Origin: Vermamoeba vermiformis | Taxonomy: Eukaryota | Assembly: GCA_045837725.1 (NCBI GenBank) | Contig: JBEWZL010000233.1 | Span: 62,001-98,149 of the forward strand | Length of the DNA stretch: 36,149 bases | Reading direction: 5' to 3' | Shown here: positions 3,571 through 36,089 of the stretch, in pieces | Position numbering within the stretch: the first letter of the stretch is position 1 | How the letters are laid out: each line of letters opens with the position of its first letter | Translations under genes and position numbers: made by a program | The notes under the pieces: generated by a model | What the model was told of the DNA's origin: nothing | Seen by the model: the letters and a program-made list of their open reading frames with translations, nothing else | Databases searched by the model: none

Positions 3571-4557
3571 TTACAATTTAGCTTTCAATGGCACTTCCGC
3601 GCTTGTTTCGTCAAATAACTCCCAAGGTAGCTCTAGTAGCTCCAGTATAGGCTTGCTATCCATTTCGTCTATCATGAGTTGCAGATCTACCTCGGTCGTT
3701 AAGCTAGCTTCCGGTTTCCAGTATTTGACGCAACTGAGCCAGAAATCCGTTATAAAAGACTTGACTACAGCAGACGGCACGTAGTACTTGTGTACTTTTC
3801 CATTTGGTTGTCGAACAGGTCGTTGTGCGTACTTGAATTGTTGCAGCACTGGATCCGTGCGGGCTAACTGTTCAAATTGCTCATGGTTAATCATATGCGG
3901 CGAAGATAGACGTATGCCAAGCCACAAACAATTGGTGGACTTCGATTCAGGGGAGAGCGGTGGTTGAACGTAACGCATGTTGATCGCTCTGAAGCCGAGG
4001 TTGTACAAGATGCGATGTCTGTCGCGCGGGTCCATAACATCCAGATCGTGACTGACCGAGGCCTTGTTAGTCTCTAAGTAAAATCCATCTACTTTCTTCT
4101 TGTTGCGCAGTCGCTGCGCGTCCTGATCGGCCATGAATTCAGCCTGGTTGGCCAGCAGTTTCGACACTTTTTTGCCGCGCGTGCGTTCATTCAAGCAAAA
4201 GTACGACAGCAGCACGCTATTGGATGCGATCATATATTCAAAGCAACAGCCGCCAACCATCGGACCTAACGGGCCAAATCCACACCAATTACTGATGGCA
4301 GTGTTGCTTTTGTGCGACGTTGATCGTTGCGGCAGATTTTCAAAGACAACGACGAGATGAGCAACGATATTAGAAGGGTTCTCTTCTTGCAACGCCTCCA
4401 CCCAAACATCGATCGGATCCAATTCATCGGGAATAATACCAAAGTTGGGCATTAAGAAATCATTGTAGAATTTTTTTAGTATGTCTTCGTCGTAATGGTA
4501 TCTTAAATCCACAAATGTGAAGCCATTAACGGTGGTGACTGACTGATCTTGATGCAT
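3571..4557 (-). CDS. GNAT-family N-acetyltransferase-like protein, intronless, 328 aa
   Basis: VGGCCFEY...LLSYFCLNERTRGKKVSKLL (acetyl-CoA motif A-like), FYLE, RILYNLGFR..MRYVQPPL (motif B-like). Confidence 0.7.
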   Translation of the reverse strand: MHQDQSVTTVNGFTFVDLRYHYDEDILKKFYNDFLMPNFGIIPDELDPIDVWVEALQEENPSNIVAHLVVVFENLPQRSTSHKSNTAISNWCGFGPLGPMVGGCCFEYMIASNSVLLSYFCLNERTRGKKVSKLLANQAEFMADQDAQRLRNKKKVDGFYLETNKASVSHDLDVMDPRDRHRILYNLGFRAINMRYVQPPLSPESKSTNCLWLGIRLSSPHMINHEQFEQLARTDPVLQQFKYAQRPVRQPNGKVHKYYVPSAVVKSFITDFWLSCVKYWKPEASLTTEVDLQLMIDEMDSKPILELLELPWELFDETSAEVPLKAKL

Positions 4558-5018
4558 TGCGTGCGATTATTAATAGGATTACCTTAGATAAAATAAATTT
4601 AGTCCATAAAATAATATTGCGATCGGTATCGTTAAACTGTATTTTAACTGATCCGATCTGGATGCAAAATGGTTATCCTGCAAACTAGTTGAGCCGTTAA
4701 CTGTAATTGTTTGCAGCATAATAATATTTTTGGTATGCGCTTACTTGATAAATAGTGCATCCGGTGGCCAAACAAAACAAAACGAGCTCGGAGATCGGGG
4801 TTCTATCTATTGAACACGGTGCCTTCTTCGCTTAGAACTCACGCAAGCAAATATGTTGTGCTGTGGTTGTGGTCTTGGGACCTCCCGTTCGTTCGTTAAA
4901 TGAACAAAGTTGGGAATCATCTACCAGGGCGCATGCTTATTTTTCTTCTAACGCCGGCTTTCATTCAGCTGAAGTGCAGTTGTGTAAACCACGCCTTGTT
5001 AGTGTCTGAATATCGACC

Positions 5019-8000
5019 ATGGCTGAGAAGGAACTTAAACCGGATTTCAAAGCTGAATATGCCAAGTCCAACCGCTCTTCGGTAACTCACCTACTTCTAC
5101 CCTAATACCTTTTCTAAATTAAATTAATTAATTTAATTTACCCCAATAATAGTGCAAGGGCTGCAGCGATAAATTGGAGAAGGATCTGGTGCGTATTGGA
5201 AAGTTGGAGCGAGCAAGCAACTTCGACGGTGAAATTTACGTTTGGTTCCATCCTCGTAAGTATATTTGATGTGCAGTCGTTATGCTATTGCGTGCAAGCG
5301 AATTGGTGACACCACCCTTTTTTTCCTGAAATTGGCAGCGATATTTTTTTTTTAATTCACGGTTAATTCTAGGTTGTTTCTTCAACAAACACGGCGGCTT
5401 GGTCAAGGATGTAAATGACATCAAGGGCTTAACTGACTTGCGTTGGGATGATCAACAAACTTTGAAGAAGTTCGTCGGTGGAGATGCAGAGGACGAAGAT
5501 GAAGACATGGACGACGACAACATCGAGGGTGTAGTCGTAGAGTATGCCAAGAGCGGTCGCGCTAAGGTAATATACTGATTTTTTTTGACGTCCCATCCGC
5601 TTCTTCGTTTTTTCTCGCCAACCTGACTGATTGTGAATTCATTTCCAGTGCAAGTCGTGCTACCAAGCCATTGCCAACAAAGAGCTGCGTGTTGGTGAAC
5701 AATATCGCGACGAAGATATGGGCTATTCAGGCACCAACTGGTACCACTTGAAGTGTTTCACGGTACCCGACTCCATCGAATCCGTCAAGGACTTGGACGG
5801 CTATTCGAAACTTAAGCCTGCTGATAAGAAGCTCGTTGAGGCTCACTTCACTGCTGCGTTCAAAACTAATTCGAAGAAGCGAAAGGAGCGCGAGGACGAT
5901 GTTGAAGAGCGCGTAAGTATTTGATCAGCAGCTTGGGGACTAGATATTGACTGGTTATTGACAGGCTGCCAAAAGACAAAAGACCGATGATGCTGAGCGA
6001 CAACGTGTGGAGCAGTTGTGGAAGATCAAGGACAAGCTCAAGAAGAAGTATAACACTAACGAACTCAAGGCCATTTTGAAGTACGCGCGCTGACATTCAC
6101 GCTATATTCTTGACGACACTTACCAATTTTGATTAGGTTCAACGATCAATCTTATCACGGTGGTCCCCAGGAGTTGATCGATCGTGCGGCCGACGGTGAG
6201 CTGTAAGTTAACAAAGAAAGGCATAATTAATTAGATGGATTCAATGCCTAACCACACTTCAGCAACGGAGCCTTGCCCTTGTGTTCGGAGTGCAAGAAAG
6301 GTCATTTGTATTTGGACGCCGGTCAGATCAAATGTCACGGCTATTTGTCTGCCTGGTCCAAGTGCACTTTCACTTGCCCACCCGCTGACATTAAAGAGCG
6401 CGCCAAGTGGAAGTATCCCAGCGACGATGAGATGGATGAACTCATCGAGAAGATCAAAGAGGACAAGAACAAAGACAAGGCTCCTGGTGTCACCATTTCG
6501 GTAATTGATTCATTCTGTCCTTGCTCCACGGCTGTGATACTAATCAATCACTTATTAGCATCCCGAGCTGTTCAATGACTTGTTGTTCGCCTTCGTGGGT
6601 GATGTGGCCAACAAAGACACGCTCACGGAGTCAATCACCCAGCGCGGTGGTCAAGTGAATGCCAATGTGGTCAAGAAGGTCACGCACGTTGTTTCCACCT
6701 ACGACGAAGTGTCCAAGGCCAAGCAGACTACTAAGATTGCTAATGCCGTCAAGTGGGACATTCCCATTCTGTCCTCTGGTTTCATTAACAAGTCAGTCGA
6801 GGACGGCAATCTTAATTCCTTGGAAGACTTCAAGTTGTGGAAGGACGGCAAGGCAGTGCAAGTTGATGACAAGTATCAAGCTGCCGCTGCAAACAACAAT
6901 GGCCCTAAACAACGCAAAAAGCTCGCTATTCCTCCAGTCGACGAGAAATGCTCGCTCACTGGCGTAAGTGCCTCACCACCAACTATTACGATCGCTTACC
7001 CAGTCATTTAGGGTCAAATCCTCGTTGAGGGAACCGATGTCTATGCGACCATGTTGAACATGACTGATTTGACGCAAGGTCAATCGGGTCGCAACAGCTT
7101 CTACTTGATGATGATCGTCACCAATGCCAAGAAGAACAAATTCGTTCTCTTCCGCAAGTGGGGTCGTGTCGGTCAAGAAGATGCACCTACCACTGAAGGT
7201 GAATACACTAAGAGCGATGCCATCGCTGAATTCGAACGCATTTTCTACGAGAAGACGAAGAACACGTGGGACCAGTTCTTGGAGGACACTTACGAGAAGA
7301 AGCCAGGCAAGTTCTTCCCCATCGAACTCGGTGGCGATGAAGAGGAGGAAGTCGATGACGCCAAGCTCAAGCGTGCCAAAGAGATTTTGCAGGCTGGTAC
7401 TACCTGCAAATTGGACCAACGTGTGCAAGACCTCGTCAAGCTGTTGTTCGACACAAACATGTTCAAAGAGCAGATGAAAGAAATGAAAATCGACGTCAAG
7501 AAAGTACGTAATAATATTCATATGTACATGCAGTCCGGCGACTAACATGATATTGTCTGTTAGATGCCTCTCGGTAAGTTGAGCAAGACCCAACTTGCAA
7601 AGGGTGTTGCCGTGCTCGAAGAAATCGAACAAGAGTTGGCCAAAGACAAGCCTAGTGCTGCTTTCTTGCTCGATGCTAGCAACAGGTACGTAGTGCCACG
7701 CAATTATTACGAATGAATGAATCGCTAATCTCCTTAGATTTTACACGATTGTGCCCCACGACTTTGGTTTCGAGAAGCCAATACCAATCGACAACAAAGA
7801 ATTCTTGCAAAAGAAATTCGATCTCATTGAAGTAAGTACTCAAATGCAATACTATTATTCGATACTAACTACTTGCACTAGATTTTGGGCGATATCGAAG
7901 TGGCAGCACGTATGTTGGAAGCTGAGGGCAAGATGGGCACAGATCCGATCACCGAGCAGTACAACCAACTCAAGAACGAAATCCACCCCGTGGAGAAAGA

Positions 8001-8794
8001 CAGCGAGGAGTGGAAGCGCATTCAGACCTTCTGGGACAACACGCGCGAGAACAAGAACATCACCATCGAAGAGATCTACACCGTCAATCGTCAAGGCGAG
8101 CGTGAACTCTTCACGCAACACAACAAACTCGACACGCGCAAGTTGTTGTGGCACGGTAGTAAGGTCGCCGTATTCGCTGCGTAAGTTGGATCTGGCCTCT
8201 TTTGCTCCAAACTTGCCGTCTCACTATGATTATTTCATTAGCATTCTGAGCGGAGGTTTGAAGATTATGCCTCACGCTGGTGGTCGTGTCGGTCGTGGTT
8301 TGTACTTTGCGGACATGATCTCCAAGTCCGAGCAGTACCTCGGTCTGCACGGTGACATTGTAAGTGGCTTTTGCGCCCCTAATTGTACTTGGTGTATACT
8401 CATTGCTCTATTTGCGTAGGGTCTCGTCTTGTTGAATGAAGTCGCACTCGGCAAGATTCATCGCATTCAACACGATCGCCCTGATTTGGTCAAGGCTCCT
8501 GGCGCTACTAGTGCTGTCTTGGCCGAGGGTTCAATTCATCCAGATCCCAAGTTCGATTATGAAGAGTAAGTAGTATAGTAGTCATCTTGTAGCTCTGATC
8601 AGTATAATAATTTCATGTCCAGCAAAACCCTCTCCCCGAGCGAGTATCCAGTGCTCATTCCTCAGGGCAAGGTTGTCAACAGTGGTGTGCGCGGCAGTTT
8701 CATGCACAATGAATTTTTGGTGTACGATCAGACCCAAGCTTCAATGCGCTACCTTATCAAGCTCAGAAACAAGGGTCGCGCTGGCTGGTGGTAA
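5019..8794 (+). CDS. Poly/mono(ADP-ribose) polymerase: two PARP zinc fingers, PADR1, BRCT, WGR, regulatory and catalytic domains
   Basis: EYAKSNRSS|CKGC...WFHP|CF; EYAKSGRAK|CKSC...WYHLKC; GALPLCSEC..CHGYLSAWSKC; BRCT (GGQV..VTHVV); FRKWGRVG; MPLGKLSK; FYTIVPHDFG; LLWHGS, GLYFAD, NEFLVYD (H-Y-E triad). Many GT-AG introns; stop TAA 8792-8794. Confidence 0.95.
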
Positions 8795-9079
8795 ATATTT
8801 AAGTTTTACAGGTTACATAAATTTGCCTTATGTGGGCATTTTAATTTAGTTGACGTCAGTTACTTTAAGCAGACTTTGTTTTTGCGACGTCCGTGATATG
8901 TTGGACCAGCATCAATTCGTGGGTAGCTGCCGCAACGCTAAAGAGATTCTGCCCGCAACGACTCAAAATTCTAAATTTGCCCAAGGTCGGGCGGGCAAAA
9001 CCATGTTGGGCGAATCTTTTGCAAATATTTCTCTACTCGAATCAGCGCAATCGAGCATTAGCTTATTATTAGTGACAAC

Positions 9080-10269
9080 ATGAAGAATCCCCTGTTTGTA
9101 TTATTGATGGTGATACTGAGCACCACGTTTGCTGCAGTATATTACGTCGATCAAGAACAAGGAAACGACCTATCAGATGGAACCAGCGTTGCTACTGCTT
9201 GGAAAACCTTACCTGGCGATCCCGCAGTGGATTTGACCTCCGAACCCGGAAAGCGATTTACCACCGGATATACAGCTGGCGACAGATTTTATCTCAAAAG
9301 AGGCTCAATTTACTATGGAAACTGGTTGTTTAACAACAATTGGAGCGGAACAGTTGATGCTCCTTTATTTATTGGATCAGCTCCGGCAGACATCGACTTT
9401 GGTCCTCCAAATACCAAAGCTATTATGGATGGATCTATTGCCATTACTGGTTGGGTGCCTATCGATCAATCTGAAGCATCAGAGAACAGCAATTGGGCTC
9501 ATTTCGTGAAGTTCACTTTGAACCAAGATTACGATCCGGCCGTTCACCTCTACTGCGACAGTCAAATGATGTATGGTTCTCAAGCCAAGCCAACGGAAGA
9601 TATGTTCGATTTTGAAAGAATAGATTTCTCCGCATTCGATATCGACCCTGCATATGGAACGTTTTGGGAGTTTACGACAGGCAATTACTCGGCTGGTGGA
9701 GTCGTTCGTTTTGTGGATGATAGAATCAACAATCTTACAACAACCAGCCTTATCAATACCTATGCTAATATGCGAGTCTTTGGCAATTTATACCGAACTT
9801 TCCTGATCATAGACGATAAAATTGTCAACGGCAAACGATCATTATTCTTGCAATGGCCAGCTGGTGTCAACCCGCCGGTAGATGTTGGACTTAGCTATTT
9901 TAGATGGACTCTCTCTCATCATCCCACTTTCATGGATCGTCCTGGAACTTTTTCAGTGAAACCTGACGGAAGAACTTTAATTGCATGGTTTCCGTGTCCA
10001 GTAGCAAACGCTAGAATTACCAGCTTACTCTCTGGAATCGACATGCGTGGAGCTGACAACGTGGTCATCGACAGTGTCATACTGCGCGTCTGCCAGTGCC
10101 AACTCCTGAAGCAATCCCTACTGCTATCGGCGTTCCAAACTCTCCAACAGCCCCCAACGCAATCCCAAGTTCATCTGCCCCTCAAGAGAATGTGACTTCG
10201 GGAACGGACAAAACTGTTGCAAGAAAGTTTGCGTACTTTGTAATAGCATTCTTCCTGTATTTCGTTTAA
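9080..10269 (+). CDS. Secreted right-handed beta-helix (pectin-lyase-fold-like) protein; C-terminal region frameshifted or deleted, possible pseudogene
   Basis: Signal peptide, YYVDQEQGNDLSDGTSVATAWKTL, GDRFYLKRGSIY and GIDMRGADNVVIDSVILR, typical of bacterial-type beta-helix proteins. Main ORF stops at 10195; a P/S/T-rich linker plus hydrophobic tail lies in another frame ending TAA 10267-10269. Confidence 0.65.
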
Positions 10270-10361
10270 TGCCAACTTCATTAATGATTCAATAAACTTC
10301 TAATAATGTTTAGAACTACAAATCAGAATTTATTTTAAACTAACTCCGTAACTTGACGGTG

Positions 10362-12318
10362 CTAACAAGCGTTTTTTAGCTTGGGATGACAAAGTACATT
10401 ATTCTGTTTCGGAACAAGCAGTAATATGGAGTCTAACGCACTGGTCGGTGTAAGGGGTTGGGTAGATAACACTATCGAATTGCCTGTCCAAGCTGCATAT
10501 GGTTTCAAATTGTTAAGTCTTCCAGCGATAATTATCTTTGGATCGCTTTTCAGAACTTTGATGGCTTTTGGATCGCTGGAGTTTAGATACAGATCAATAC
10601 ACTTATTTTCTGTCATATTTGTGTCATTAATCATGTAATACGAGGCAAACATCGTATTGATTGCTCCTTCACTCAGTCGTAGAGAAAGGCCAACAACATT
10701 GGAGTAGTATTTGCGCCAGTCGTCGGAAAGTGGAAATGTTTTGAGAATGTTATCGAACGAATTGCAAAACATCCAGTCTCCGGTGAACTTTTGTCTTACG
10801 TCGGTAATATCCATATTTTCTATTGAGGTAAATGACGTGTAGTTGCACAGTGTAGGACATTGAAATGACTGGTCACTCGGTGCGTCATTGGCCTCAGGAC
10901 GTGGCTGTGGACTCGTGTCCATACTTGTCGCTATGCTTATTATGCCGAGTAATAAAACTGCTGTCAATCCAATCCAAAAAGCTTTGCGCATTGCAGCAGG
11001 CAACCTTAGCTTCATGAATTCAAAGGTCTTAGGCCGGCTCGTGTGCTCGTTAATAAATTGATTGATAACAAGCAATTCTTTTTGTATTTGAGCCTGATTG
11101 TCGTTAACATTGTCCATTTCCGAATGAAGTCGCTGAGCATCGTCATAATTCTTCTTAACAGCCTCGCTTATGAACGGTATCAGAGCTGTATAATCAATGT
11201 GTAACACGCCTGTGGTATGGTATTATTGTTATAAGTCAATCTTAACGAATTTCAGTCCTGAACGCACCATCAATCTCGGTCACGGCTTCGGGTATTCGCT
11301 TCTGCACTTCTTGCGCGATATAGCCGATGTACTTTTTTGATCTTAATTGAGGATACTTTTCAGGGTCCATTTCATAGCTGACACCATCAATAAAGTACAA
11401 AATATCTCGCGGATCCTTATCTCCTGGTCACAAAATATTAGATCCTGTAACATATCATTTTTCACGGCATAAAGTAATTATATTTCATATTTCATAAAAT
11501 ATGACGCCAAAATTTACCTTCCGCTATTTTTTCTATGTTGATTTTAACGCGGCGATCGGATGTTCTGTAAAAATTCAACGCTCTAAAATTGCCTAAAACT
11601 TCGGCATTTTGCTGGGCTATGATTTGGTATTGTGGCTCGTAAAATTCGCTCCTTACATTCATTTCACTGTCAGGACTGCCATCGTTGCTTGACAAACAAT
11701 TGATCCGCTCGTCAAAAGAGTGCTCGGCAGCGTAATTACGCTGGCCTATTGAGGGCTCATCATCAACATAAGTATTATTGTTGTAATTAACCGTCGCAGA
11801 TTTGCTAATTAACCATAAATAAGGGTCTAAAAATACAAACGTTAATTACGACAACCAAACTTTAATCAATAATTACCTTTCTCTGCTTGTTTATTATTTT
11901 TTGCTACTATGAAGAACGGTTCTGTAGTGGCTATTTCGACGAGTTGGTTGTTTTGATTTTCGTACAGGACGATCTGTCCGGGTATTCTTGATAACTTTTT
12001 GAAATTGAATTTTCCTTCTTGTATTGACAATCTGAATCTATGAACTCCTTCTTCTACGGAATGTACGGTGTGCTTAGACCAACGAAAGGTATTTTGAATC
12101 AAAGATAAAGACTGATAATGACATACATCCTCAGCGTCAACAAATCCAACGGCATCATAAGTTGATAATACTAAATTCAAAATGAATTCGCGCCTATGAC
12201 CTCTAGAAGATAAAATAAAACCAAATGGCTCTTGAATAGCTTGACACTCGAAAGCTTCCGTTGAATTTTCTGTATCTTGAATATAAATATGAAATTCTTT
12301 CCTAACCGCAATGTTCAT
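10362..12318 (-). CDS. Membrane-tethered peptidase S74 (intramolecular chaperone autoprocessing) protein, MYRF/MrfA-like architecture, 4 exons
   Basis: Spliced translation: beta-rich N-domain, linker, RTSDRRVKINI, IDGVSYE, IGYIAQEVQKRIPEAVTEIDGVLHIDYTALIPFISEAVK, coiled coil, TM AFWIGLTAVLLLGIISIA, Cys-containing C-terminal domain. Introns near 11876-11827, 11517-11424 and 11267-11210 keep the frame. Confidence 0.85.
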
Positions 12319-12485
12319 GGTGAAGTGATAATGTAATAAATTGATTTAACGCTCTATTTTTGGTTAAACAATGACTTTTGACACCGTTTGACATCCCTCA
12401 GAGATCATCTACTGAAATACAGCTAAATGAGCTCGTTCATTTGTGTGCGTGAATAAAGTATCGTATTTGACTATCATACAGGGCT

Positions 12486-15400
12486 TTATTTGTCGGGCAC
12501 AAAGCTGTCACCGCGCAGAGTCGTGAACAGCTGTGTACTGCGCAGTGACGGCACATCAAGGCTGCTCTGACTCGTGTTCGGTGTGGGTGCCAGGGTCGCT
12601 AGCTGCCAGACACAAATTGCGCGATCTAACTCGCGCCCACCCGTCCACATCTCGTTCTCATTGGTCTGTATAATCGTGCGCACACCGTCTTTGTGGCGGT
12701 CCTTCAGCTCTTGAATGAACTCCAACTTCTTCGCGTCCCAGATGACAATTTCTTTGGTCCACATGCCACTGCTCGAAGTTAGTGTCTGCACTCGTTTGTG
12801 ACACCTGTCATTCGGTGACACCTGTCATTCACGTACCTCCACACTTGGCTGCGACTAGGCACAGAGGTGAGACTCAAACACTTGCCGGGGCAGTCTATCT
12901 TCTTCACCAACTTGCGCGTCTAAAAGTGCTGAATTAGAATCGCTGTCAGATCACTCGCGACCAGTACCTCTGCATCGTGAATCAGAATGTAATCATTGCT
13001 CGCGGACCAGATCTTGTTGTCTTCAGCAATCACTGCGTTGATGAGACTACGGATGCGTGAATATCGAAGTCAATTAACGGTTGACGGTGCCACTTACCCC
13101 TTGTGTCCCTTGACTGTTTCCACAATGTCGTGTGTCTGTCACGATAACATTACTATCGCACTGCACTCATTAGGACTGACATGCGCTACTCACATCCAGA
13201 TTGATCACGAACAGATCACCATCGACCGAGCCTGCCCAAATGAAGTTGATGCACTGGCACATGGCACTCACCCCCTGCGGCACTCTGATGCGGCCCTTCT
13301 CTTTGTAGCTCTGTCCCTAGTGTCAGCACTGCACTGCGCTGCTACCACGAGCTTACCTGTGTGTCCCAGATGATGATCAGACCCTCCACACAGCTGGCAG
13401 TCCACACGTCGTGACGAGGACCGCTGCCACTGTCCTCTTCGTCGAACAGAGCACTGCTAATGACACGTGTCAAACACCGATTCACACCGCACAGCTAACA
13501 CTTACTCGGGCTGCGGACCATTGATGCGTCCTCGCTCTTTGCGCATCTTGACGACAGTCATCTTGGACTTGGAGCGCGGCGAGGACAATTTCATCAGCTT
13601 GAGCATGTCGAGCTCTTCGTCGCTCTGCAGGGGCTTGTTGTTGACGAGGATCATCGCTTTGATGACCTCTTTCTCGGCATTCAGTGTCTGCACCACGGCC
13701 ACTTTCTGCTTGTCGATCACGTGCACGGTGTGCAGACCACTCGAGCACCAGACTGTGCCCTCCACTTCGAGCAGCACGTACACTCTGTCGCGCACAATGG
13801 GTACCTCTTTCAAGCACGTGTATTTCTGTGCAGTGCGCGGTGAGTGCGTGCAGTGAGATCGTTGTGCAGCGTTACCTTGGAGTCCCACAGCTGCACGGCA
13901 CCGTTGCCGAGTCCAGTCCACACCAGTCCCTCGCGGTCACGCAGCAGCACTTGCACCGAGTCGCTGGGCCCTTGCAGTGGTCCTCCGCCGTCTTGACCGC
14001 GCATCACTCGCTGGAAATCTGCCACGCGACGACTGACCTTGCCGACTAGTGACACGTGTCAGCAGTAGTTCTTGTGGAGCTATCACTTACATTGCGAGGG
14101 CAGTGTGGCATTCACGGTGAGCACTGCTTGCGCGACACTGGCCGCGAACTTCTTGGCCTCGTCGGTGGACTTGAGCTTGAACTGCCACCGCTTCTTGTCG
14201 GGTCCGATCAGCGTCACTAAGAGCTGGTCCTCTGCAACGATGGTCAGTCACGCGATCTGGTTTCAGTGAATATGTAATTCCGCACCGTTGAGCTCGACTT
14301 GACTGTTGGCGAGTGGCACGGTGTGTTTGATGTTGTACTTGTCGAACAGCACGTCCTTGCTGGTGAGCAGCAGCATGTCACTGAACAGCACGTGATGATA
14401 TTCTAAAAATACATCGCGACCTTTCTCTTTTTGGATCAAAAATAGGCCGCCACGTGACACGAGCGACCGTTGCGGCACAATCAGGTCCTAAAAATAGAAC
14501 ATTAACTCCCACACCTGATGAAGCACGGTACGCACTTTGATGGGTGGATCGAGCTGTTTGGCCACGTGCAACATGTCACGCGAGCTGTCAAACTCCTTCT
14601 TGCGCGAGTTGATCAGATCCGCAATCTCTTTGATGCGCGTGAGTGCTTGGCTGATCAGCGGGTAGTCTTTGTGCTCGGGCTGCGTGTGCTTCTGCAGCGT
14701 TTGCAGCAACAGCACGTAGCGCGGAATACTATATTTGGAAAGCGTTAGAATACGTGCCAGCAGTGTGTTCAGTGAACGGCATACCGCTGAATGGGCTGAA
14801 TTAGCAGCGACTGCAGCTTGTTGTCGTCGAGATCTTGCGCCTGACACGTGTCAAAGTGTTAGTTGTCAAGTGTCAAACACTGCACTGCATCGCTTACCTT
14901 GAGAAATTTCGCAAAGACATCATTATTCCGCACTTTTTCAATCACTTTGAGCGCGTTGTCAAAGTTGTTAACGTACTGGATATATACCTTGAGGAATTCG
15001 GTCTGAAAATGTGACACGTGTCATTCACTGACTTGCACTGAGACTACTGATTGACACGTACCATGTTAATAAATATCTGACCGATGCATTGATCGATATT
15101 CCATTTCCTAATTTGGGTTTGCAGCTGTGCGAGCAGTGACTCGTTGACACCAACAATAACTGCAAAGATTAATGATCAGAGCCATGTCTAAATATAGTAA
15201 CTTGCCTTTGATCTGCGAGAAGATCTTTTTGACATCTTCGGGATTCAGTGAACGGCTCTGCATCGCTTCAGCCAAGAGTGGATCGTACAACTTCTGCAGA
15301 CACAGTGCTGTTAATACAGGCCCCACAATATATATAGGGTGCATATATAGATATAAGTGTACCTCAGACATGTATTTGAGGTTGGTCACGTAGTACTCTT

Positions 15401-18430: not shown

Positions 18431-20327
18431 ATGGACCCGACAACGAGGGTAAGAAATAATTAAGATAAAGTGCCTTAAGATCACAATATCACGTATAATA
18501 TTTTTACTTGTTGTACCTGAATGCTTTACGCTTTTACGCTCCCATCTGATAATTATTTTGTTTAGCTCGAGGGTTTCCTTTTGAAGCGAGGAAAAGGTAA
18601 ATATGGCCACACTATAATACCAATACGCAGGATTTAACGCTAGAATGCAGTTGCTCGCGGTTGGAAGAAGAGATGGTTTCAATTGGGAGACCGAGACTTC
18701 TCACGGCTGTATTATTCTGAAGAGAAAAACTCCGAAAAATTAGGTTATATTGGTAAGTAGTTGTATTCTTGCGAATCAGACCACAATTTGTACTGCAAGC
18801 TCGGATTAGCTCCGCAGAGACTTTGCCGCTCCAGTGGTTACATTCCCTAACTGACGCATTCTACGACTAGACCTAAAGGTGTCTGAAGTGCGCGCGAGCA
18901 AGGCAGACAGTTTTGTGATTGAAATTAGCAATGCAGATCGCACCTTTCAGCTCCAAGCCGCGAATGAAGTGCAGTTCCAGTCGTGGTACGAGTTCTTGCG
19001 TCGATGCACGCGCGAGGCCTCGAGCAACACTGAGCCACTGCACCAAGAGATCAAGCGTCTGCTGCGCGTGATACACGAGCTGAGTGAAGAGCGGCGTCTG
19101 GCCCTCGAACTGACCAATCGCCTGAACGAAGAGCTGGCCGGTGTGACGGGCCGATTGAACGAGCAGTTGAGCGCGGCCAACAGACGCATCGCTGCACTCG
19201 AGAGCGAGAACGCACAGCTGCGCCGCGCACAGGGCTTGGAGGTCAGTGCGGCGGTGTCAGTGCCACTCAGTTCAGTGAACGAGACACCAGAGACCAATCA
19301 CAGCACCACGCACAGTCCCGCGCGACCAGTGCGACCAGTGCAAGCCGTGAATACCAACAACGCGTTCCGTGCCTCGATGCGCAAGACACTGCGCCGCACA
19401 CTGGAGCTGAAGCGCGATGAGATGCGCATGGCGAGCAAACAACGTCTGCTGGACATTGAAAGCGAAGTGGAGCTGTTGTTGGAAGAGCTGAATCTGCTGC
19501 ACGACATTGACGGGGACGATGCGGAGTTGAGTGACAGCGAGGACACGATGGACGTGCCTAGCGGTACTGACAGCGCGACTACCACTGACAGCCTGACCAA
19601 CAACACCACTGCCAGTGACGAGCAGAGTGACGAGCGCAAGTTGAAGAAGTCCTCGTCTGAAATGAACTTGAAAGAGCTCAAACACCGCGTGCAGTCCAGT
19701 TCACATCAGACTGCTGCAATCGTGGACATTTTGCACGAACGAGCTGCGACTGTCGTGCAACAAGCACAGGCTGAGGCGAGTGACCCCAAGCAACAGACAC
19801 GTGACAATACGAATGCACCTGACAGCACTCAGTGTGACAGCACTGAGAGCGGCACTAGCGCGAGTGTCAACAACACCAATGTAGACAGCACTACATCGGA
19901 GAGTACTGCACAGCACATTGAACGGCCCAAGTCACTCGATCACGTGACCACTCACTCGAGTGACAGCGAGGACCACTCGTCCACACAGCGCGACAGTACC
20001 CCTGCCAGTGAACAGCACACGGGCCACAAGTCCCTCGCTGAGCCCTACAGACAGCGTATTGACAGTCAAGCCCCCGGCAAGGAGTACGTTGCAGCACGTG
20101 TCAAATCAGCGCGCACACAGTGGCTGACACGTGACAGCATGACCAACGGCCAGCCTGGCGAGCTCAAACCCAAAGTGCCCTTGAAGCGCATTGACACAGC
20201 GCCCAGCGGTCACTCGTTTGTGCGCGGTGTGCCACGTGCCAACACGAAGACCCCAGCCCTTGCCCTGAACAGTCCGCGCGGTGTCAATCAACCAGTGGTC
20301 ACACCGAGCATGTTGGAGGACAAGTGA
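18431..20327 (+). CDS. PH-domain protein with coiled coil and long S/T-rich disordered tail
   Basis: Small exons MDPTTR|LEGFLLKRGK|VARGWKKRWFQL..LYYSE..KLGYI|DL..RTFQLQAANEVQFQSWYEFL give a canonical PH domain; heptad-rich region follows. Confidence 0.85.
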
Positions 20328-34297: not shown

Positions 34298-36089
34298 ATG
34301 AACAAGCGAGAGGCTGCAGACCAACAGACCGAGGTGCTGCCACCGCCCATGAACAATGAGGAGGCGATCAAGTGGCTCGAAGAGGAATTGGGACCAGATT
34401 CAGCCGCCAGTCCGCGCCACAGTCTGCGCGGTGTGAAGGGACTGCCCACGCAAGTAGACGATCTGATATTGTTCTGGAACAAGAGCAAGTGGAATGACAC
34501 CATGCTGGGCGATGTTGAAGAGGATGAAGTCGTGCCTGTCAAACCACCCAAGGGTGCGCAGGTGTTGCAGTGGGATTTCAACGAAGAGAAGCGTGCTGAA
34601 CCACTGCCATTCTGGTTCAACGAATTTCCTAGCTTTTTAGGCACTGTCATGGTGATGGGTACGCATTAATTTGAATTAATAATCGATTTTCACAAATATT
34701 ATTTTTTAATTGATCTGAGTTCACGACGTACCAGTGTGAAATCAAGAATATACAGCCAGTAATTGACAAAATAATTATAAAATATTATCGAGCCATTACA
34801 ACTTATACTTAGAGAGGATGTTAAGTGGATATTTCCAGATCTAACCTCAATCTTTGTACCGTGCAGGAGGTGCGCTGTTCTTCACTAAAGGTGTCGTTAA
34901 TGTTGCATGGGGCTATGCCAAGCACGTATCGGGCAGTGCTACACGCAAGGCCATGTTCAAAATGCGCCATCAGCGCGATCAGTGGATGTTGCGCCGCGAA
35001 CAACTGCGCGAGCACGGACCAGTGCCACTCACTCACGAGCGCAATGTCGTGCCACAGAGCGTGTTGAATGTAGCGCGCGCACGATCACAGCGCTACTTGG
35101 ACCGCGAGAATCAGATCATGACCGAGCTGCGCAACACTGGCCGCTTGTTGCAGATGCGCTTCAATCGCGCACCCAAAGACGAGCGCAAGGGCCTCACCCT
35201 CGAAGATCTCATCACAGCCAACAGCGGCAAGTTGATGGTGGAGCCCGATGATGGCAAAGTGCCCAAACTGCCGCGCGTGAGTCGATTCCCCGGCCTGCAA
35301 GTACTCGCGCGCATCTTGTGGCAGCTGCGTCCCGTGCCGCGCCAAGGACTGCGCACACTCAAGAAGGTGCATCGCATGCTGATGCGTCGCTTGAAGAAGG
35401 GCGTCAAGTTCAGTGCGCTGCTCGGCATCTTCATGCTGATGCTGCTCGCGCTGTTCAACAGTGGCGTGGAGCACATGTGGGAGTACGAGCTGAATCCCGT
35501 CGTGCAGGCACAGGACAAGCGCTTCTGGGCCTACGTCGCACAGCTGCGCAGCGATGCACTCGGGGGCCGCGAGATTGGCATTGATTGGGGTGTGGTGCAC
35601 ATGCAGCGTGCCCTCGCCGAACAGTCGCCCGCGTACAAAGCTGAGCTCGAAGCACGCTACGGCTCACTCGAGCACTTGCAGGGACCAATTGCCAGGGCCA
35701 AGCAGCGGCTCAGTGCCTGGTACGCGCCATTCGAAGACCACGTGCACGCCTGGCGCGCCGAGTTCTTGCGCGACAAGTACGTGTGGCCCCTCGTCGTCAC
35801 ACTGCCCATTCTGCTCTGGTTCTACAATCGCTCCGACAAGTACCACGCACTGCTCGGCTTCTCACTGGTCACCACGGGTGCGTATTGGATGACGGATCCG
35901 AACTTGAAGGCCTATTTCAATCAGCCCGTGTCGATCAGCACCATGCGCGATGTCTCGGAGAATGGTGTGCGCAAAGCATGGTCTGAACGCACTTCTGAAT
36001 ACGCCACGCGACTGAGAGAACGCTTGGCACGCGAGACACAACTGGCCAAGGAACGACGCGAGCACAAGAAGGACAAACAACAATCTTAG
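34298..36089 (+). CDS. Uncharacterised multi-pass membrane protein (2 exons, intron about 34659-34866)
   Basis: Donor G|GTACGC, branch CTAAC near 34841 and acceptor GCAG at 34866 join the two ORFs in frame. Hydrophobic segments FLGTVMVMGGALFF, FSALLGIFMLMLLALF, VWPLVVTLPILLWF, ALLGFSLVTTGAYW. GC-rich codon bias as in neighbouring genes. Confidence 0.75.

Follow-up and report, generated by a model that had tools for sequence, protein, structure and literature searches.

A spliced Vermamoeba vermiformis gene encoding an S74/ICA domain between a head without detectable relatives and a predicted membrane anchor

In phage endosialidases and tail fibres, the S74/ICA domain is C-terminal and is shed once it has folded the extracellular fibre. 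To our knowledge, ICA-driven self-release of a eukaryotic protein from a membrane has been demonstrated for MYRF and MrfA alone, and the cargo is of the NDT80 type in both. The catalytic dyad is formed by a Ser and by a Lys five residues on, and the cut is made just before the Ser (PMC3828593, PMC8326128). In MrfA the dyad is S767/K772, within the motif SDLRIK (PMC3828593), and in MyRF it is S587/K592 (PMC8326128); in both proteins, Ala at either residue abolishes cleavage. The equivalent dyad of the endosialidase endoNF is S911/K916 (PMC3828593, PMC8326128), and neither residue of the dyad varies in the alignment given in PMC3742443. NDT80+S74 proteins without the MYRF C-terminal domain occur in Amoebozoa and other lineages, according to a survey of membrane-bound regulators whose text covers NDT80-bearing proteins only (10.64898/2025.12.20.695554), and S74 is ubiquitous in fibre proteins of protist polinton-like viruses (PMC12220804). 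Here we have analysed a minus-strand gene (12318..10362) in a 36,149-nucleotide stretch of Vermamoeba vermiformis DNA (assembly GCA_045837725.1, contig JBEWZL010000233.1, positions 62,001 to 98,149); this whole stretch is called the window, and all positions are counted from its first letter. The four exons of the gene give a protein of 584 residues, in which an S74/ICA domain stands between a head without detectable relatives and a predicted membrane anchor. We read this product as a membrane-tethered precursor that would be trimerised by its ICA domain, cut itself and release a cytosolic head trimer, i.e., as the mechanism of MYRF and MrfA applied to another cargo, and we put the probability of this reading at roughly 0.55.

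Judged by homology, exons 2–4 encode one complete S74/ICA self-cleaving domain. Exon 3 matches the Pfam family PF13884 (Peptidase_S74) with an E-value (E) of 2.7e-6 and 28 bits, the cut-off being 22, over positions 17-58 of the 58 in the profile, and it matches PHROG 5668 at 1.3e-6. In PHROG 1699 (long tail fibre distal subunit), residues 53-100 of the exon-2 frame match profile positions 858-905 and exon 3 matches positions 910-953. That is, the two matches are adjacent and collinear. When exon 3 was compared with phage records by tblastn, tail-fibre genes in 60 of them were hit, with weak E-values (0.007-0.3 among the 15 listed). Exon 3 alone found no PDB match by phmmer and no match among longer proteins, where there were only 4 candidates.

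We aligned the last 150 residues of five phage tail fibres with residues 206-350 of the spliced product, and the S74 domain runs continuously across introns 2 and 3, with Ser237, Asp238 and Lys242 in columns that are invariant in all five fibres. A profile built from the five phage fibres alone matches the spliced protein at residues 217-333 with E 7e-19, and none of 1000 shuffles reached even E <= 10, so chance can be excluded for the S74 domain. After exons 2 and 3 were added, the profile found four solved structures in PDB, i.e., 6f45 (long tail fibre distal subunit, 2.9e-19), 7dc3 (the ICA domain of MYRF, 1.5e-11) and two other tail-fibre proteins. The threshold of the curated S74 family is exceeded, and the Ser and the Lys stand five residues apart in register with the known dyads. 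The first-pass annotation, which was made from the DNA letters alone, had proposed an S74 chaperone domain with a Ser-Lys dyad, and the Pfam and PHROG matches, the phage-only profile and the register of the alignment all agree with it; its motif SDRRVK is present exactly at 11560-11543. By analogy with the known dyads, the predicted cut falls between Thr236 and Ser237. The earlier estimate of a released piece of about 230 residues is accordingly corrected in size to 236 residues, and its release is expected from homology.

The gene is transcribed and spliced as predicted. When the exons are spliced in silico, the joined reading frame is open across all 584 codons, and the three introns are of one type, GT..AG and in phase 1 (Table 1); for intron 2, a nearer AG (11446-11445) used as acceptor would lead into a stop. 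We compared four public runs with positions 10000-12700. A contig of 1617 bases in run X4, which comes from another study under another organism label and whose RNA nature is our guess, spans 10386-12249 and omits 11210-11267, 11424-11517 and 11827-11876. These stretches are the three predicted introns and show CT..AC on the plus strand. Since the gaps of the contig coincide with the predicted introns, all three are confirmed to the base, and the four-exon model of the earlier annotation is borne out.

Run X9, from a third study, contributes four intron-free pieces on the gene, and a fifth piece lies on the upstream gene. One X9 contig stops at 11828 and carries 15 loose letters, which spell out the end of exon 1 when reverse-complemented; as this loose end matches exon 1, it is independent evidence that exon 1 is joined to exon 2. 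With X4 and X9, two studies show this joint in RNA-like contigs, and exon 1 is joined to the S74 exons as had been proposed. The raw RNA runs X21 and X22 gave no reads on 10000-12700 and are uninformative. Exon 1 has an open frame of 159 codons. When the 480-base stretch was shuffled 20000 times, the frame never stayed open, and the analytic P is ~4e-6, so chance can be excluded for this frame as well. The peptides TTEPFFIVAK, which closes exon 1, and GYIAQEV, in exon 3, are both present where they had been read before.

For the part behind the domain core, we used hydropathy and an AlphaFold2 single-sequence model of the exon-4 product. The predicted local distance difference test score (pLDDT) of this model is 42.8 overall, and only its two helices are usable. 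The first, of 48 residues (312-359 of the spliced product, 9-56 of the model, block pLDDT 57-69), follows the domain core and aligns with the C-terminal helices of phage fibres. The second comprises residues 374-398 (71-95 of the model). Only one hydropathy peak is found in the protein, at 379-397, with a Kyte-Doolittle maximum of 2.19 and Lys/Arg on its N-side, and a transmembrane (TM) helix is predicted at about 379-397. No hydrophobic stretch occurs at the N-terminus. Behind the TM helix lies a tail of 185 residues, which contains 6 Cys residues and 4 N-x-S/T sites and for which the model falls below a pLDDT of 50. Because the N-terminus is not hydrophobic, the single peak has Lys/Arg on its N-side and the Cys- and sequon-bearing tail comes behind it, we infer that the N-terminus is cytosolic, i.e., that the product should be a type II single-pass membrane protein whose head and S74 domain face the cytosol. 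A helix, one TM helix and a tail, in the order in which the first-pass annotation had placed a coiled coil, one TM helix and a tail, are recovered here by hydropathy and the exon-4 model; its 'Cys-containing tail' does hold Cys residues, and the description is refined to the 185-residue region with its Cys and N-x-S/T sites.

The tail has no family in Pfam, PHROGs or NCBIfam and no ESM Atlas match. For the whole exon 4, no Pfam match appears at E <= 1, MRF_C1 and MRF_C2 included; no relative of its product was found among 2252 candidates, and searches of metagenome contigs with 73 patterns and of viral contigs with 7 patterns brought up none either. In this respect the protein differs from MYRF and MrfA, since its C-terminal tail is unrelated to anything known in the Pfam, protein and Atlas searches.

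As phage tail fibres are the best sequence matches of the S74 domain, and as the domain is so common in the fibres of protist polinton-like viruses (PMC12220804), we have to consider that the gene may be a captured fibre of viral (polinton-like or giant virus) or bacterial origin. The head would then be a receptor-binding or adhesive tip outside the cell, and the S74 domain would only fold it. The protein shares several features with phage endosialidases and tail fibres (endoNF, 6f45): besides the invariant Ser, Asp and Lys, a Thr precedes the Ser as T910 does in endoNF (PMC3828593), and a G-x-hydrophobic beta-stalk stretch stands directly before the motif. The low GC content at third codon positions (GC3) of the gene is also common to the convergent neighbour at 9062-10195, which is secreted-looking and has a weakly lacto-N-biosidase-like N-terminus. 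However, the S74 domain of our gene does not terminate the protein as in phages; it sits inside the chain, ahead of the predicted membrane anchor and the tail, and is encoded by a spliced nuclear gene. The fibres of polinton-like and giant viruses share with it the S74 domain in a eukaryotic setting (PMC12220804), but they are large modular proteins (laminin-G, collagen, BppL_N) with a C-terminal S74 and lie inside viral elements, whereas our gene is a small host gene with introns, its product has a predicted TM helix, and no relative was found on viral contigs.

Several other observations argue against a captured fibre. The gene has three spliceosomal introns and is expressed, on either side the next host gene is no more than about 170 bases away, and no viral hallmark is found among the 30 of 81 frames (>= 100 codons) scanned in the window. 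Neither the head nor exon 4 has a relative in the viral contigs of IMG/VR, and the head has none in phage records. In addition, there is no signal peptide, so under standard insertion rules the head cannot be outside. Overall, we regard a fibre origin of this kind as very unlikely, and return to the membrane-tethered, self-cut precursor.

The cargo of such a precursor would be the head (residues 1-147), and here our searches came back nearly empty. The head has no Pfam match at E <= 1, hence no NDT80_PhoG (PF05224), no match in PHROGs or NCBIfam, and no PDB sequence match at E <= 10. It was not found among 107 candidate longer proteins in a word-index search, no usable match came from the ESM Atlas, and tblastn against phage records gave no match. 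In IMG/VR viral contigs 5 pattern matches were obtained and in JGI metagenomes 86, none of which was confirmed in either collection, and no paralogue of the head lies within the window (best tblastn E 0.027). An exhaustive phmmer search against 1.84 billion representatives returned 3 matches. All three were rejected as short stretches of tandem-repeat proteins (Sushi repeats and two repeat artefacts). Part of this blank reflects poor coverage of the lineage, since the product of the gene itself is also absent from the collections.

The absence of NDT80/PhoG, MRF_C1 and MRF_C2 at Pfam E <= 1 agrees with the first-pass annotation, which had recognised no NDT80 motif in the head, and it means that the protein is not an ordinary MYRF/MrfA orthologue at the sequence level. 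As NDT80 is not detected in the sequence, we do not class the protein as MYRF, though it is a member of the S74/ICA family. It might still be a divergent factor of the MYRF/MrfA type, with a head of NDT80- or p53-like Ig fold that has diverged too far for sequence methods. The order of the parts does match MYRF/MrfA (beta-rich head, linker, stalk, ICA, TM), the size of the head is about that of an s-type Ig domain, and NDT80+S74 proteins lacking the MYRF C-terminal domain are on record (10.64898/2025.12.20.695554). In the single-sequence AlphaFold2 model the head consists of 9 beta-strands and lacks helices, at a pLDDT of 33.6 that makes the model unusable for a fold. Against such a factor stand the missing Pfam and PDB matches described above, the absence of any MYRF-like protein among the representative matches of the head, and its charge: the isoelectric point (pI) is 6.30 for the head and 5.29 for the released piece, with no classical nuclear localisation signal. 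We therefore hold a hidden Ig-fold factor to be highly improbable. The Ig-fold DNA-binding head suggested in the first-pass annotation is likewise left unsupported, as no search yielded a relative and the model is of so low confidence.

The earlier suggestion of a separate family is not supported either; no second member was found apart from a 40-base glimpse of a paralogue transcript. In a second X4 contig, of 332 bases, 36 of 40 bases match at 11566-11605, i.e., in the beta-stalk before the motif, after which the contig diverges. This contig is probably the transcript of a paralogue, and the organism may therefore hold several S74-stalk genes.

Putting these parts together, we can sketch how the membrane-tethered precursor would work. 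After insertion, the S74/ICA domain and the following helix would hold three copies together. After folding of the trimer, Ser237, activated by Lys242, would attack the Thr236-Ser237 bond. A soluble trimer of residues 1-236, with each chain of 27.4 kDa, would then be released into the cytosol, each chain consisting of the probably beta-rich 147-residue head, the acidic linker and a short beta-stalk. A 16.4 kDa stump with the TM helix and the Cys- and sequon-bearing tail would be left in the membrane.

Trimerisation, cleavage and release are expected here by analogy with MYRF and MrfA, and several features are shared with these proteins. Both are type II single-pass proteins in which the ICA/S74 domain precedes the TM helix and faces the cytosol, which is also the orientation inferred for our protein. 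The dyad is Ser-x4-Lys in each case, with SDRRVK here and SDLRIK in MrfA (PMC3828593). From the cut site to the TM helix, MrfA has about 15 kDa (PMC3828593), and the distance from Ser237 is 140 residues or 16.4 kDa. Between head and stalk, MrfA has a long disordered linker (PMC8326128), and our protein has an acidic one (residues 148-216, pI 4.13). As in these two proteins, a helix follows the ICA domain, and it was the profile including exons 2 and 3 that reached the MYRF structure. Since the cut-to-TM distance and the head-stalk linker resemble those of MrfA, they support a MYRF-like layout, and the host-gene context, with PARP1-like, RhoGEF/WD40 and NifS-like neighbours, also counts in favour. 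The differences concern the two ends of the protein: unlike MYRF and MrfA, it has no NDT80/PhoG domain and no MRF_C1/C2 by sequence, its head of 147 residues is without relatives, and its released piece is acidic with no evident nuclear localisation signal. As a leading, speculative guess, the cargo may have a regulatory role that need not involve DNA binding.

A number of points weigh against the self-released head trimer. The topology was assigned by simple rules. The head is without a detectable relative, so neither its conservation nor its function finds support in the sequence comparisons. The released piece, with its pI of 5.29, has only three di-basic clusters and no classical nuclear signal, a composition that does not favour a DNA-binding nuclear factor, without excluding one, and that would weaken a transcription-factor role like that of MYRF. 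The RNA contigs reach neither the start codon nor the stop codon. They also show no differing letter in any of the 5 X4 pieces and 5 X9 pieces, so no evolutionary comparison can be drawn from them. Exon 1 has a GC3 of 0.293, near the GC content of the introns (0.24-0.36) and of intergenic DNA (0.33-0.35), the GC3 values being 0.429 for the rest of the gene and 0.65-0.73 for housekeeping neighbours; this low GC3 fits a young or weakly constrained sequence. Finally, the X4 contig drops 46 bases inside exon 1 (12087-12132 or 12089-12134).

The dropped stretch deserves a closer look. Because 46 is no multiple of three, the skipped form breaks the frame of the head. The ends of the skip read GT..AG on the plus strand, i.e., antisense to the S74 gene, and record 6 of X9 (11930-12186) reads through the stretch without a skip. 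The likeliest cause is that the assembly, being unstranded, took in a spliced antisense RNA, though a strain deletion or an assembly artefact may be responsible instead.

Several of these points would also be expected if the gene were young or decaying and specific to its lineage. The S74-helix-TM module, one of several paralogues, would then have gained a recent and possibly non-coding exon 1, the head would be without settled fold or function, and the protein may be a variable member of a fast-evolving family and not a regulator. Besides the GC3 of exon 1, which matches the GC content of introns and intergenic DNA and is below the GC3 of the remaining gene, this is in line with the failure to find a relative of the head among the 1.84 billion representatives (apart from the three tandem-repeat matches) or in the other searches, with the low pLDDT of its model (33.6), with the frame-breaking skip in one RNA-like contig, and with the paralogue transcript, which shares the stalk region only. 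However, the 159-codon frame goes far past chance, and in exon 1 the GC content at first codon positions (GC1, 0.449) is higher than at second ones (GC2, 0.306), which is coding-like. Moreover, the splice between exons 1 and 2 is in phase in two studies, the X9 contig retains the 46 bases, and the missing relatives are partly due to the poor coverage of unannotated eukaryotes in the databases, from which the gene's own product is absent too. Taking both sides into account, we consider a young or decaying gene unlikely, and the self-cut precursor remains the reading that we prefer.

If the preferred reading is true, the same release machinery works with another cargo, and should be regarded as a portable module and not as the peculiarity of one transcription-factor family. 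A wider claim goes beyond it. The gene might represent a second, independent eukaryotic use of the phage self-cleaving domain as a membrane-release switch, in which the trimer of an unseen non-NDT80 domain acts as a signal or regulator, and it might be the visible member of a small family of 'ICA-released' factors that is specific to the lineage and whose heads can be exchanged. We offer this claim tentatively and consider it rather unlikely. In the literature we found no eukaryotic ICA-plus-TM protein without NDT80 described in the article texts, and such proteins may be listed in supplements. What limits the weight of the case is a head without relatives and with weak signs of constraint, and databases contain many uncharacterised eukaryotic 'S74 domain-containing' proteins. 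As a test case the gene is small and easily tagged, with 584 residues and one Ser and one Lys to mutate. The coordinates of its features are collected in Table 1.

Table 1 Positions of the exons, introns and predicted protein features of the S74 gene in the window.
Feature	Positions	Strand	Details
Exon 1	11877..12318	-	ATG 12318-12316; head residues 1-147 and first base of codon 148
Intron 1	11827..11876	-	50 bases, GT..AG, phase 1; absent from X4 contig; X9 loose end is the exon 1 end
Exon 2	11518..11826	-	acidic linker (148-216), beta-stalk-like stretch, cleavage motif, S74 start
Intron 2	11424..11517	-	94 bases, GT..AG, phase 1; absent from X4 contig
Exon 3	11268..11423	-	S74 core, GYIAQEV...PEAV; GYIAQEV at residue 284
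Intron 3	11210..11267	-	58 bases, GT..AG, phase 1; absent from X4 contig
Exon 4	10362..11209	-	S74 end, long helix, TM helix, C-terminal tail, stop TAG 10364-10362
Cleavage motif SDRRVK	11543..11560	-	residues 237-242; Ser237 predicted nucleophile, Lys242 predicted general base
Whole S74/ICA domain	11118..11620	-	residues 217-333; split by introns 2 and 3
Long helix	11040..11183	-	residues 312-359; last S74 helix and probable trimeric coiled coil; exon-4 model
Predicted TM helix core	10926..10982	-	residues 379-397; K/R-rich N-side flank; hydropathy and exon-4 model
C-terminal tail	10365..10919	-	residues 400-584; predicted lumenal/extracellular; 6 Cys, 4 N-x-S/T sites
Skipped stretch within exon 1	12087..12132 (equally 12089-12134)		46 bases; absent from X4 contig

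The window is compact eukaryotic nuclear DNA. Its genes include those for PARP1-like, F-box, RhoGEF/WD40, CDF transporter, mitochondrial carrier and NifS-like proteins, and further for a G-alpha subunit, an M24 peptidase and a RhoGAP-SH3 protein; Rfam and tRNA scans of the window gave nothing. The S74 gene is tightly packed among its neighbours. The upstream spacer (12319-12485) has about 167-168 bases from the stop of the RhoGEF/WD40 gene to the ATG, and 166 bases (10196-10361) lie between the stops of the S74 gene and of its convergent neighbour. As both spacers are very short, the promoter, untranslated regions and poly(A) signals must fit inside them.

The convergent neighbour (9062-10195, plus strand) is an intron-free frame of 377 codons with a signal-like N-terminus, and its product looks secreted. 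No Pfam or PHROG family was found for it. Its residues 24-116 weakly match the N-terminus of the bacterial lacto-N-biosidase LnbX, with an NCBIfam E of 1.5e-6, far under the cut-off, and an E of 4.4e-4 to PDB 7v6i. Its GC3 is 0.434, low like that of the S74 gene. Further away, a multi-exon PARP1-like gene occupies 6252-8419 on the plus strand, and its successive frames carry PADR1, BRCT, WGR, PARP_reg and the PARP catalytic domain.

With regard to codon usage, two classes stand side by side in the window. The conserved housekeeping frames (NifS-like, CDF, 18855-20327 and 34845-36089) form a class of high GC3 (0.65-0.73), and the S74 gene, its neighbour, 3571-4566 and the PARP exons form a class of low GC3 (0.39-0.53).

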